Positions 2,820 to 44,210 of a stretch of DNA of 64,000 nt are shown in pieces. The DNA is from a virus. The position numbers were made by a program, and so were the translations under genes. How positions within the stretch are numbered: position 1 is the first letter of the stretch; each line of letters begins with the position of its first letter. The notes beneath the pieces are model-generated. The model saw only the letters and a list, made by a program, of their open reading frames with translations. It ran no database searches and was not told the DNA's origin. Location of the stretch: IMG/VR virus record IMGVR_UViG_3300021961_000044, positions 28,987-92,986 of that record. One strand, 5' to 3'.

Positions 2820-3268
2820 AAATGACTAAAAAATTCAACAAACTAAACGACTCCTTTGGAATTGAAGAAAATTCTATAGTTCCAGAAGTAGAGTCTGCTC
2901 CTATTGAGATTATTAACGATGATTCTGATGAAGAATTTGAAAAAACACCAGAGGTAAGAAAAGATTATAAGTATACAAGAAATCAATTATATTCATTAAT
3001 AGAAAAAGGACAAGATGCTATTAACGGTATCTTGGAATTGGCAGCAGAAACAGAACAACCAAGAGCATATGAAGTTGCAGCGCAATTGATTAAAAACGTT
3101 GCAGATACTACTGACAAGTTGATGGATTTGCAGAAAAAATTAAAAGAGGTAGAAGAAGATACCAAACCAAAAGGTCCAACAAACGTAACTAATGCTTTGT
3201 TTGTTGGGTCAACTGCAGATTTGGCAAAACTTTTAAAGAACAAGCAACAAGAAGAGGATACTAAATAA
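2816..3268 (+). CDS. gp16: Terminase small subunit gp16
   Basis: DY.YTR..LY, PRAYEV, NALFVGSTADL motifs; position after gp15. Confidence 0.93.
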   Translation: MKMTKKFNKLNDSFGIEENSIVPEVESAPIEIINDDSDEEFEKTPEVRKDYKYTRNQLYSLIEKGQDAINGILELAAETEQPRAYEVAAQLIKNVADTTDKLMDLQKKLKEVEEDTKPKGPTNVTNALFVGSTADLAKLLKNKQQEEDTK

Positions 3269-41975: not shown

Positions 41976-42318
41976 GAACAACCTTATTGAAGAAACACCC
42001 GACAGCATTAAGAATTATCCGCCATACATTATTAATCGCTGTCTTTCTGGACATTTAGATTGCGTCATGTTTGCAAACGAAATGAATAAGTATCACAACT
42101 TAGATAAGGATCTACAATATTCGTTTTATCTAAATAGTCTTAGGAAAAGAAAGAGATTTTCTCCCTGGCTCCGTAAGGATAAAGTCACAGACTTAGAATG
42201 TGTTAAGCAATACTATGGTTATAGTAATGAAAAAGCATCTGAAGCTCTTAAGATCCTGACAAAAGAACAAATTAACTTTATTAAAAAACGACTTGATGTT
42301 GGAGGAACAACAAAATGA
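41926..42318 (+). CDS. gp62: Clamp loader small subunit gp62
   Basis: LKDWLNSIN, YPPYIINR, RKRKRFSPW, YYGYS..KA. Confidence 0.92.
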   Translation: MMEYELKDWLNSINFNKNNLIEETPDSIKNYPPYIINRCLSGHLDCVMFANEMNKYHNLDKDLQYSFYLNSLRKRKRFSPWLRKDKVTDLECVKQYYGYSNEKASEALKILTKEQINFIKKRLDVGGTTK

Positions 42319-42761
42319 CAGCTAACAGTATGACAACGGAACCTGTTGTTAATTGGTCCGCTAGTGATATGATAGAAGTTCTATTGAACGAACCAGATGA
42401 TTTTTTAAAAGTACGTGAGACTTTAACTCGTATTGGAGTTGCATCTCGCAAGGAGAAAAAACTTTATCAATCCTGCCATATTCTTCATAAACAAGGAAGA
42501 TATTATATTGTTCATTTTAAGGAATTATTTGCTCTAGATGGAAAGAGAGCAAATCTTACTGTAAATGATCTTCAACGCAGAAATAGAATTGTTAGGCTTC
42601 TTGTAGACTGGGGTCTTATCTCTGTTATTGATCAAGATTCTGTCTTAGATATCGCTCCATTGAATCAAATCAAAGTCCTTGCTTATAAGGATAAGGGGGA
42701 TTGGATTTTGGAAACGAAGTATAATATTGGCAAAAAAGGAAAGGCAGTAGAAACCGAATAA
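42315..42761 (+). CDS. regA: Translational repressor RegA
   Basis: DDFLKVRETLTRIG, LYQSCHILHKQGRYYIVHFKELF. Confidence 0.97.
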   Translation: MTANSMTTEPVVNWSASDMIEVLLNEPDDFLKVRETLTRIGVASRKEKKLYQSCHILHKQGRYYIVHFKELFALDGKRANLTVNDLQRRNRIVRLLVDWGLISVIDQDSVLDIAPLNQIKVLAYKDKGDWILETKYNIGKKGKAVETE

Positions 42762-42769
42762 AAAATTAC

Positions 42770-42791
42770 GGGGGTCCACACCCCCTTTTTT
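42770..42791 (+). terminator. Rho-independent terminator after regA
   Basis: GGGGGT-ccac-ACCCCC followed by T run. Confidence 0.75.
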
Positions 42792-42868
42792 ATGCTTTCT
42801 TGTATAATTAGTAATGGATGCCGTAAGGGTCCACACAACACAAACTCGCTTTTAAAGGAGCTACCATA

Positions 42869-43303
42869 ATGACTAACCTCGCACGATACACTGCGGCAGA
42901 TCTTCCTGCGCTTATTGACCGTATAAATAAGTATAGTATTGGAATGGATGAGACGTTCGATAGACTCTTCAGAACTCACCAGACCGAATCGAATTATCCT
43001 CCATACAATCTAGTTCAGGTCAGTAGCAGCGAATCCAGACTTGAACTTGCACTAGCAGGATTTAAAAAGGAAGAAGTCAATGTCTACACACAAGACGGAA
43101 AACTTTTTGTCGAAGGACAAAAAGGCAATGATGACTCAAGCACAAATTATATCCATAGAGGAGTGGCTCAACGAAGTTTTACGCGAGCATGGACCCTTAG
43201 TGACGAAACAGAAGTTAGATCAGTTACTTTCGAGGATGGGCTTCTAGCAGTATCTTTGGGAAAGGTCGTGCCAGACCACCACCAAAGGAAAGATTGGTTT
43301 TGA
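42869..43303 (+). CDS. hsp20: Small heat shock protein Hsp20
   Basis: NYPPYN, ELALAGF, HRGVAQRSF.R, DGLL; TATAAT at 42803. Confidence 0.95.
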   Translation: MTNLARYTAADLPALIDRINKYSIGMDETFDRLFRTHQTESNYPPYNLVQVSSSESRLELALAGFKKEEVNVYTQDGKLFVEGQKGNDDSSTNYIHRGVAQRSFTRAWTLSDETEVRSVTFEDGLLAVSLGKVVPDHHQRKDWF

Positions 43304-43329
43304 TTTGATAACATTTTCTTTATAATTCA

Positions 43330-43371
43330 GTATCATAAAATACAAAAATGTTTGTTGTGATACATTATGAT
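43330..43371 (+). promoter_or_regulatory. NtcA-type promoter (GTA-N8-TAC-N22-TAN3T)
   Basis: GTAtcataaaaTAC 43330-43343, 22 nt, TATGAT 43366-43371; second imperfect box GTT-N8-TAC 43350-43363. Confidence 0.65.
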
Positions 43372-43406
43372 ATAGATAATTATGTACTCAATGGAGGCTT
43401 ACTATT

Positions 43407-43490
43407 ATGAACTTCACAGTACCAACAGTAATTATTGGATCGACTCTTTCTCTTTTTAGTTGGTTGGTCCTTCCCTCCGTCATTCCCTAA
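43407..43490 (+). CDS. Hydrophobic microprotein, 27 aa (MNFTVPTVIIGSTLSLFSWLVLPSVIP)
   Basis: GGAGG at 43393-43397, ATG 43407; single-TM character. Confidence 0.6.
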   Translation: MNFTVPTVIIGSTLSLFSWLVLPSVIP

Positions 43491-43500
43491 CCCACCACCT

Positions 43501-43578
43501 ATGGAAATCATCGCAACATTCGCACTACTCGGTTCTGCTATCTTCGGAGCATATAAATTAACTCCTAAAATCAAATAA
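43501..43578 (+). CDS. Hydrophobic microprotein, 25 aa (MEIIATFALLGSAIFGAYKLTPKIK)
   Basis: 10 nt after previous stop; TM segment followed by basic tail. Confidence 0.55.
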   Translation: MEIIATFALLGSAIFGAYKLTPKIK

Positions 43579-43609
43579 ATAAAACTGAATATCGTCGGCG
43601 CAATGCCAC

Positions 43610-43650
43610 GAGGGGTAACTGGCAAAATCCAGTTGACACCCCTCTTTTTT
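43610..43650 (+). terminator. Long bulged hairpin terminator
   Basis: GAGGGGT/ACCCCTC and AACTGG/CCAGTT stems, GAC bulge, T run. Confidence 0.8.
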
Positions 43651-43661
43651 ATTGTTAGAAT
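43633..43661 (+). promoter_or_regulatory. sigma70-type promoter for the gp43 operon
   Basis: TTGACA-N17-TAGAAT with extended -10 TG. Confidence 0.8.
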
Positions 43662-43680
43662 AAGTGAAAACGGAGAAACA

Positions 43681-43851
43681 ATGACAACAAAAACCCATAT
43701 CATTGAAAAGAAGGACTCCAAACATTCCCAAACATGGGAGTGGGAAGAAACTCCAGAACTGATTGAAGCACTCAAAAAAGTTCATCAATTAAGTTCTACT
43801 ACTGAACTTAAAGCGCCAAACAAACCAAATACAATTAACGATAAAAAATGA
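43681..43851 (+). CDS. Hypothetical protein
   Basis: GGAG RBS at 43672; WEWEETPEL motif. Confidence 0.6.
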   Translation: MTTKTHIIEKKDSKHSQTWEWEETPELIEALKKVHQLSSTTELKAPNKPNTINDKK

Positions 43852-44210
43852 CAGTAAAATTAATCTTACTTAAGTCTGGAGAAGATGTTATCTGCGATAT
43901 TTCCGAAATGGTCGTAGGTGAAGGAGAAAATGAAAGAGTGGTTGGATATTATCTTGATAAACCTTGCCTAGTAAAAATGCGAGATCCTGCTCCAGTTGAT
44001 TCTCCTACTCCTATGGTGAAGCTTTCCGAGAATGCAAAGCAAACTGGATTCCAGGTATCACTTTTTCCATGGATGCCACTCTCTAAAAATAGAGTTATTC
44101 CTATTGTAGCAGAATGGCTTGTAACTATGACTGATCCAATAGATAGACTTGTAGAACTGTACAATGAGGCTCAATTAAAAGATGACGAAGATCCTAGTCC
44201 TGACAAATAA
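43848..44210 (+). CDS. Conserved hypothetical protein (Sm-like)
   Basis: VKLILLKSGEDVI, PWMPLS. Confidence 0.7.
   Translation: MTVKLILLKSGEDVICDISEMVVGEGENERVVGYYLDKPCLVKMRDPAPVDSPTPMVKLSENAKQTGFQVSLFPWMPLSKNRVIPIVAEWLVTMTDPIDRLVELYNEAQLKDDEDPSPDK

Follow-up and report, generated by a model that had tools for sequence, protein, structure and literature searches.

Canonical NtcA-activated promoters carry a GTA-N8-TAC box near position -41.5 and a TAN3T -10 element ~22 nt downstream of it, and they have no -35 element. The idealized box, taken from the S. elongatus glnA site in the NtcA-DNA crystal, reads TGTATCA-GC-TGATACA and has A/T-rich flanks (PMC11850224). In Synechocystis, the most informative positions of the NtcA motif are G1, T2, and C14, 71% of the activating sites fall at -41 to -44, and the repressing sites are scattered with a small peak near -30 (PMC5714215). 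Sullivan et al. (2010) analyzed 16 cyanomyovirus genomes, predicted from 1 to 16 NtcA-like sites per genome, and proposed that phages exploit the host 2-oxoglutarate/NtcA system (PMC3037559). Phage use of host NtcA promoters is thus an idea that was already proposed in 2010 and is not new. Here we analyze a locus that lies downstream of hsp20 in a 64,000-nucleotide stretch of viral DNA (hereafter the window). The window is part of the IMG/VR record IMGVR_UViG_3300021961_000044, which spans 93 kb and is estimated to be 48% complete. Its match to the full NtcA promoter consensus is followed by two very short open reading frames (ORF1 and ORF2), and an earlier interpretation made from the letters of the DNA (the sequence-only reading) proposed that a host NtcA-type promoter drives them.

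We lean, if only slightly, toward a different view of the locus as a whole. It would be a self-contained and horizontally shuffled microprotein expression cassette of T4-like marine cyanomyoviruses, with its own palindrome-gated promoter and with products that form membrane helices. The durable result is that a two-microprotein cassette, widespread and unannotated, is accompanied by an unusually conserved control element built of NtcA-like half-sites. The parts of the cassette in the window are as follows.

43330..43343, + strand: box 1, a perfect GTA-N8-TAC located exactly 22 nt before TATGAT.
43349..43364, + strand: a degraded copy of the palindrome, 16 nt long, reading GTT-N8-TAC (TGTT-N8-TACA), with the right arm alone intact.
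43366..43371, + strand: TATGAT, a -10-like hexamer (register 1), 22 nt after box 1.
43371..43380, + strand: a second -10 register, TATAGATA overlapping GATAAT, a 7/8 match to the T4-type late promoter TATAAATA.
43393-43397, + strand: the Shine-Dalgarno (SD) sequence GGAGG, 9 nt before the ATG of ORF1 and kept in nearly all relatives.
43407..43490 (stop included), + strand: ORF1, a 27-aa uncharged hydrophobic microprotein.
43501..43578 (stop included), + strand: ORF2, a predicted single-helix microprotein of 25 aa whose C-terminal anchor, G-A-Y-K-L-T-P-K, is conserved.

The positions that the sequence-only reading gave for both boxes, TATGAT, GGAGG, and the two ORFs, as well as the 22-nt spacing, are all exact. 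Its proposal that the ORFs are overlooked hydrophobic microproteins is also borne out, and homologs of both are widespread in IMG/VR. ORF1 was found there in about 100 distinct cassettes, and every copy is 27 codons long with the ATG, the GGAGG, and the stop conserved. Our first set of ORF1 sequences (51 distinct at the nucleotide level, 40 as peptides) gave a pairwise ratio of nonsynonymous to synonymous substitution rates (dN/dS) of ~0.35 (0.34-0.36), and its entropy is highest at third codon positions, lower at first, and lowest at second positions. Residues M1, T4, G11, L16, and F17 are invariant, and N2, T7, and L8 are nearly so. ORF2 is present in a subset of the cassettes and ranges from 23 to 43 codons. 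Its core has a dN/dS of ~0.27, and the motif G-A-Y-x-L-T-P that follows the helix is invariant. Judged at the level of sequence, these comparisons show that ORF1 and ORF2 encode proteins and evolve under purifying selection, as members of two families to which no database gives a name.

One could instead suppose that neither ORF is a gene and that the frames stay open by chance in a non-coding leader or spacer. The ORFs are indeed very short, ORF2 has no SD sequence upstream of it in the window, and an antisense frame is open over ORF1 in 49 of the 51 sequences. However, a fixed 27-codon length with a conserved start, SD sequence, and stop over ~100 diverged copies, dN/dS values well below 1 for both ORFs, the greatest conservation at second positions of the sense frame, and five residues that never change across 40 or more peptide variants make a non-coding origin exceedingly improbable. 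An antisense gene would furthermore need to cross both the terminator and a promoter. Such an ORF (131 aa, 43380-43775, - strand) does span the cassette together with the terminator and the promoter that follows, and a similar one of 255 aa is present in the sequence L135 described below. We regard it as an artifact of an open antisense frame. That frame has third positions in common with the sense frame and has its most conserved positions at the first, not the second, codon position, and it was rejected on these grounds as well as for the crossing. We likewise rejected ORF1 as a threonine-rich leader peptide, as purifying selection spans the whole peptide and not just its Thr codons.

Database searches with the two peptides were largely silent. 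No family in Pfam, PHROGs, or NCBIfam matches ORF1 or ORF2, and nothing appeared in Pfam or NCBIfam at E values up to 10. This negative result extends to the Pfam and NCBIfam profiles of small photosystem, cytochrome b6f, and NDH-1 subunits, and a PsbT-like reading of ORF2, suggested by its N-terminal M-E, its helix, and its basic-P-K tail, was set aside as being without profile support. A homologous-protein search with a 43-aa form of ORF2 returned only two database proteins, and a search of the ESM Atlas with a 39-aa form gave an uninformative best score of 0.76. We found no description in the literature of either peptide or of the palindrome. A scan of 185,579 prokaryote genomes with a strict N-terminal peptide pattern produced no host homolog of ORF1, although diverged homologs could escape such a pattern. 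The sole match from that scan is in a metagenome-assembled genome named 'Thermoplasmata archaeon' (L135; CP070751.1, 1623344-1626424), in a cyanophage fragment that comprises a cyanomyovirus hsp20, an ORF1 cassette, and a DNA polymerase. This fragment probably reflects mis-binning or a chimeric assembly.

Seven cultured Synechococcus phages in GenBank carry ORF1 (RN05-S, RB11-B, S-B43, S-B05, S-SCSM2R, S-H35, and S-B64), and it is annotated in none of them. Five of the seven also have an ORF2-type gene; S-SCSM2R has only a dissimilar hydrophobic ORF of 25 aa at the ORF2 position. The usual limit for gene calling is 90 nt, and the ORFs in the window, at 84 and 78 nt, fall below it. Peptides of 23-27 codons would have been missed by annotation for this reason.

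The distribution of the cassette points to mobility. We took the 80 hsp20 loci in IMG/VR that are closest to that of the window and inspected the space downstream of each. An ORF1 homolog is present in 47 of them, ORF2 accompanies ORF1 in 9, and ORF2 stands alone in 3. The space between hsp20 and the element that carries the terminator measures 27-43 nt in many phages and ~225-380 nt or more where an insert is present. A scan for the palindrome that was not anchored on hsp20 recovered 52 distinct cassette units in its sample, with 37 located behind hsp20 and 2 adjoining psbA. Cassettes in the hli/psbA region occur in S-H35, in S-B64, and in two contigs. In both of these phages the cassette is bounded by the hli genes and a gp212-like gene at one end and by a gp214-like gene at the opposite end, and its parts run in the order ORF2-like, palindrome, ORF1. 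In S-RIM2, psbA comes after the equivalent gp214-like gene. At two further loci (L069 and L175), ORF2 alone follows the same promoter. The cassette always lies directly upstream of a conserved, single-copy closing element.

Comparison of the window with locus L243 is instructive. ORF1 is ~96% identical between them at the nucleotide level (counted by hand on the alignment), the hsp20 genes are roughly three quarters identical, and the left halves of the promoters are unrelated. A near-identical ORF1 next to a diverged hsp20 and an unrelated half-promoter indicates mosaicism. On the evidence of these alignments, the cassette is horizontally shuffled and mobile among T4-like marine cyanomyoviruses.

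Other cargo has been placed in the same position. The sequence-only reading noted that pstS, under control of host PhoB, lies near hsp20 in related cyanomyoviruses, and we see pstS in the space after hsp20 in P-RSM4 and P-SSM7. The slot after hsp20 is confirmed as a hyperplastic site for stress-linked cargo. The cyanophage pstS genes, for which Pho boxes are predicted in several cyanomyovirus genomes, resemble the cassette in occupying this slot and in being small, stress-linked cargo with a promoter of its own. They differ from it in the nature of the cargo and of the promoter elements, and the cargo of the cassette has no known host homolog.

For the control region, we aligned 45 upstream regions and then compared 61-62 and finally 98 distinct promoters. 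The last set derives from 98 distinct units of palindrome plus small ORF, a few of which probably arose by chance. The dominant feature of the family is a 17-nt palindrome, TGTATCA-N3-TGATACA, which is intact in 60 of 61 and then in ~97 of 98 distinct promoters. The exceptions are a couple of single-base variants and the window, which is the only one of the 98 promoters with a degraded copy. The triplet at the center varies freely. In each of five phage genomes, the cassette holds one perfect copy.

Upstream of the palindrome, the position that corresponds to box 1 has the family form G-(T/C)-N...(T/G)-A-C-A. Over 62 promoters, G1 is present in 100%, T2 in 56%, A3 in 40%, T12 in 82%, and A13 and C14 in 100%, and the A that follows is invariant; position 2 is C in 39%. 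A GT-N10-AC form is found in 48-57% of promoters. A -10-like hexamer with A2 and T6 follows the box at N22-23 in 48 of the 62. This first register varies by clade, being TATAAT or a near variant (TATACT, TATAGT) at N23 in one and CATAAT at N22 in another. The second register lies 9-10 nt beyond the first hexamer and has invariant TA.ATA columns. Among the 98 promoters, it matches ATAAATA/CTAAATA at 6-7 of 7 positions in 94 and TATAAT at 6/6 in 79. The late-promoter sequence TATAAATA is perfect in L008, CTAAATA is present in several clades, and most promoters also read TATAAT. The consensus reported for cyanophage late promoters is NATAAATA (PMC2984593). Neither register has a usable -35 element anywhere in the family. 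For the window specifically, a promoter scan returned no + strand site that ends at TATGAT, and there is no TTGACA-like hexamer 16-18 nt upstream of it.

The palindrome overlaps the zone of the -35 element and spacer, whichever of the two -10 registers is taken as reference. We read the palindrome as a putative operator for a dimeric DNA-binding protein, in a position like that of a repressor site. Tandem arrays of TGTATCA-N3-TGATACA that resemble operator or iteron arrays occur in L202 (5022-5149) and L178 (about 3000-3054), on contigs with G+C contents of 45% and 32%. Given these arrays, phages may have DNA-binding proteins that recognize this sequence. A further site was seen in S-H35 (L142; KY945241.1, 135910-135924), where a second perfect palindrome has a TATAAT 4 nt upstream of it and an ATG 4 nt downstream. 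The ATG starts a 71-aa membrane-protein gene, the first of an operon with plastocyanin and ferredoxin, and a similar site is present in L173. We estimate that a second perfect copy would be expected by chance ~0.01-0.03 times in 174 kb.

Perhaps the palindrome acts instead as RNA. Between the end of hsp20 and the start of ORF1 (43303-43407) we found no terminator-like site, and read-through from hsp20 into the cassette is likely because no terminator separates them. In such a transcript, the palindrome would form a 7-bp hairpin with a 3-nt loop, and this might serve as a processing, stability, or protein-binding signal that uncouples the microproteins from hsp20. RNAalifold returns this hairpin as the only consensus structure of the leader, the loop triplet is free to vary, and all five one-sided changes in the stem preserve G-U pairing on the + strand. 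In addition, regA, a translational repressor gene, lies just upstream of hsp20. However, the predicted stem has a folding energy of just -5.3 kcal/mol and is thus weak, compensatory changes are absent from it, and the strict conservation of both arms would also suit base-specific recognition of double-stranded DNA. T4 RegA binds unstructured AU-rich sites, which also counts against the idea. In the window, moreover, the hairpin is destroyed and the leader is not significantly structured (z = -1.1), yet both ORFs are intact, and relatives have a near-identical ORF1. An RNA function is therefore doubtful in our judgment, and quite markedly so. As judged from the stem variants, the sequence of the palindrome, and not merely its pairing, is under constraint. 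A hairpin that would pair the first half-site with the left arm of the palindrome was rejected, as the first arm varies without compensation.

A mechanism that would accommodate these observations is the following. The cassette would occupy the variable interval that separates hsp20 from the DNA-polymerase operon, and would consist of a ~65-bp regulatory region, the SD-led ORF1 of 27 codons, an optional ORF2, and the terminator of the single-copy closing element. Part of its transcription would come by read-through from hsp20. The rest would start at the promoter of the cassette, whose putative -10 region combines hexamers of sigma-70-like and of T4-late-like type without a -35 element, and a sequence-specific dimeric protein bound to TGTATCA-N3-TGATACA in a repressor-like position would gate it. 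In the window, the left half of the region has been replaced or has diverged, so that the palindrome was lost and a textbook layout of NtcA class II type arose.

With regard to the products, ORF1 has a grand average of hydropathy (GRAVY) of 1.41, with values of 0.8-1.5 across variants, and 23 of 26 variants lack charged residues. T7, G11, and T/S15 form a small-residue face along one side of the helix. ORF2 appears as a hydrophobic helix followed by a basic anchor, and its long forms end in an acidic tail with a terminal aromatic residue. Small regulatory membrane proteins (KdpF, AcrZ, and MgrB) and photosynthetic subunits (PsbT, PetN, and PsaM) are comparable in having 23-43 aa and one hydrophobic helix, and the packing face of ORF1 and the basic membrane anchor after the ORF2 helix are further points of similarity. 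Cassette genes also adjoin photosynthesis genes in some phages. The two peptides differ from both groups in matching no Pfam, NCBIfam, or PHROG family, and ORF1 lacks the flanking charges typical of small single-helix membrane proteins. Because ORF1 is uncharged with a small-residue face and ORF2 joins a helix to a basic anchor, docking on a membrane helix seems the most likely activity. Each peptide would thus be a short membrane-embedded helix, as suggested by its composition, that most likely docks onto a second membrane helix, one that belongs to a complex of the host or the phage, and modulates it, a role suggested by composition and gene neighborhood. The recurrence of the cassette beside hli and psbA loosely indicates thylakoid complexes as a target.

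Several considerations count against this proposal of a mobile, palindrome-gated cassette for membrane peptides. Membrane insertion and helix packing are predicted from composition, and the conserved helix core of ORF1 (residues 3-17) is short for spanning a bilayer. The palindrome lies within any read-through transcript from hsp20 and its few variants are G-U compatible, and thus it could act as RNA. Finally, the window itself has no intact palindrome, so the control logic of the family may not apply to the phage from which the window derives.

The sequence-only reading proposed a canonical NtcA-activated promoter for the cassette of the window. In the corresponding class II model, NtcA with 2-oxoglutarate would bind GTA-N8-TAC near -41.5 and recruit RNA polymerase to TATGAT, and the peptides would be made under nitrogen starvation. 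The reading also suggested that they could modulate transporters or photosynthetic complexes. Part of the promoter claim stands. The window has a perfect box, the N22 spacing, a TAN3T -10 element, and no -35 element, and the microproteins have a conserved regulatory region of their own upstream. The strict pattern GTA-N8-TAC-N22-TAN3T occurs 2 times in the window versus 0.34 expected, and the bare GTA-N8-TAC occurs 17 times versus 7.5 expected from shuffles. When the spacing is loosened to N20-24, the 93-kb record holds 11 matches versus 9 in the reversed control, which is chance frequency. The motif alone is only mildly unusual. The match in the window gains weight because it is intergenic and stands right before an SD-led ORF.

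The family as a whole offers additional support for NtcA. G1, A13, and C14 of the box are invariant family-wide, and most relatives keep the -10-like hexamer at N22-23. In Synechocystis, G1 and C14 are among the three most informative positions, and most activating sites fall at -41 to -44 (PMC5714215). The palindrome has the 7-nt half-sites of the idealized NtcA box and similar flanks, and the upstream box ends in a TGATACA half-site in most promoters, so that the region comprises three half-sites, all of NtcA type. The spacings give a center-to-center distance of 20-22.5 bp between box 1 and the palindrome, so the two sit on one face of the helix. Predicted NtcA sites in all 16 cyanomyoviruses of the 2010 analysis embody the same concept of a phage that uses the nitrogen regulator of its host.

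However, the sequence-only reading would have the box and its spacing conserved together in homologous loci, and this is largely not what we found. Perfect GTA-N8-TAC boxes stand in 13 of 61-62 and in 18 of 98 distinct promoters (18-21%), and relatives in general do not keep GTA...TAC. The C that occupies position 2 in 39% of promoters stands where NtcA needs T. In the clade whose hexamer at N23 is a perfect TATAAT, GCT or GCC mostly stands in place of GTA, and no box is canonical. Six IMG/VR contigs whose ORF1 is near-identical to that of the window are the closest relatives, and all six share the standard promoter of the family, a different layout in which the box is GTG-N8-TAC, the palindrome is intact, and the second register reads TATAAT. 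Conservation in orthologous promoters, as expected of a class II site, is therefore lacking for this box.

The palindrome itself presents a related difficulty. It has three central bases where the idealized NtcA box has two (GTA-N9-TAC), and the N9 spacing holds in ~97 of 98 promoters, so it resembles an NtcA box but falls outside the definition, in which the G and C are 7 bp from the dyad, because the spacing is one bp too long. The most constrained element of the family is thus N9, and we found no NtcA site with N9 spacing in the literature. A perfect palindrome with N8 spacing was absent from the five phage genomes. The palindrome also overlaps the core promoter, a position at which NtcA acts as a repressor rather than as an activator. 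NtcA is the leading named candidate for the protein that binds the palindrome because the half-sites are its ideal half-sites, but we put the probability that it is the binder well below even. In addition, we found no binding tests of predicted cyanophage NtcA sites in the literature.

The state of the window is best understood against its relatives. To the left of the right arm of the palindrome, its sequence has diverged almost beyond recognition; the palindrome lacks one base and no longer has its left arm. Box 1 has retained its outer triplets, improved to GTA...TAC. Exact-match scans of IMG/VR found the promoter arrangement of the window nowhere else. On this comparative evidence, the canonical NtcA layout in the window is a derived, lineage-specific state and not the design of the family. 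The layout may reflect an adaptive switch to plain NtcA activation, or it may reflect decay plus chance. Taken together, control of the window cassette by a canonical NtcA promoter is unlikely, though it is a proposal that we take seriously.

Sullivan et al. (2010) list in a supplementary table NtcA-like sites shortly after hsp20 in P-HM1, P-RSM4, and P-SSM7 (PMC3037559). We examined these as potential counterparts and rejected them, as they are unrelated to the cassette. One is inside a coding sequence, and the other two, those of P-RSM4 and P-SSM7, belong to pstS or DUF680 promoters that have neither the palindrome nor ORF1.

A broader form of the NtcA idea would cover the whole family. The cassette might be wired to NtcA, as the host sensor of carbon and nitrogen, through a weak class II box plus a palindrome of ideal half-sites with one extra base of spacing over the core promoter. 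The peptides would then be tiny membrane effectors of thylakoid complexes, tuned to host 2-oxoglutarate, and the window phage would have switched from this dual-site logic to plain NtcA activation. We consider this scheme improbable as a whole.

A large share of the main primary producers of the ocean is killed by cyanomyoviruses, whose small accessory genes shape photosynthesis and nutrient use in infected cells. Coastal and marine viromes commonly contain both peptide families. The control region is compact and can be tested in culturable pairs, namely S-B43 or RN05-S on MW02, S-SCSM2R on WH7803, and S-H35 on WH8102. If NtcA does bind, the idea put forward in 2010, that cyanophages sense the nitrogen status of their hosts, would become accessible to experiment. 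If something else binds, then a new regulator of phage accessory genes would be there to be found.

The surroundings of the cassette are those of the replication module of a T4-like cyanomyovirus. The closest relatives in GenBank are Synechococcus phages, and their hsp20 identity at the nucleotide level is only 70-75%. The stretch from hsp20 to the polymerase holds small conserved genes, one with a weak match to DUF6561. The flanking features are as follows.

42315-42761, upstream of hsp20: RegA (Pfam Translat_reg, E 4e-43).
42869..43303, + strand: hsp20 (Pfam HSP20 PF00011, E 1e-14), the upstream neighbor of the cassette.
43574..43662, + strand: the closing element, made of a late-promoter motif, a leader, a terminator, and an early promoter for the genes that run toward the DNA polymerase.
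43574-43581, + strand: the late-promoter-like AATAAATA, a piece of the closing element.
43585-43601, + strand: the conserved 17-nt leader of the closing element.
43610-43644, + strand: a bulged terminator hairpin with a U-run (-24 kcal/mol, z = -3.8).
43633-43638 (TTGACA) and 43656-43661 (TAGAAT), + strand: a TTGACA-N17-TAGAAT promoter whose -35 element is inside the 3' arm of the hairpin.
From 44660: an ORF of 831 aa, the homolog of which is annotated as DNA polymerase in relatives.

Searches of 42600-44000 against Rfam gave only sub-threshold matches at chance level. The 5' leader of hsp20 (42812-42874) has a weak match to the ROSE_3 RNA thermometer that is below threshold (21 bits versus a gathering score of 43, E 0.15), at the place expected for a small heat-shock gene. 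At two loci, L012 (1812-2411) and L014, the slot after hsp20 is filled by a 199-aa 2-oxoglutarate-Fe(II) oxygenase (Pfam PF13640, E 5e-12), and the microprotein cassette is absent. In the 244-kb phage S-SCSM2R (L004, PQ898602.1), from 2203 onward, an annotated NdhD is located a few hundred bases 3' of the cassette and terminator element, past one small hypothetical gene.

The terminator that the sequence-only reading saw closing the unit is real, and it is the hairpin listed above. The closing element to which it belongs is 85-88% identical in 84 Synechococcus phage records and sits at either the hsp20/gp43 junction or the hli/psbA junction. It is present once in the 93-kb record and once in each of five complete genomes. 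Similar architecture is known from the promoter early stem-loops (PeSLs) of T4-type phages (PMC2839356; Comeau et al. 2014, PMC4122927), in which a terminator stem-loop is fused to a near-consensus sigma-70 promoter. Like PeSLs, the closing element borders a variable region and is highly conserved between phages with differing flanking genes. In contrast, PeSLs occur in many copies per genome in hyperplastic regions, and the closing element adds a conserved leader and a late-promoter motif. We found none of this kind described for cyanophages in the literature on PeSLs, and we do not class the closing element as one because it is single-copy in every genome checked. It may instead be a small-RNA gene or an RNA derived from a 3' untranslated region rather than a plain terminator.

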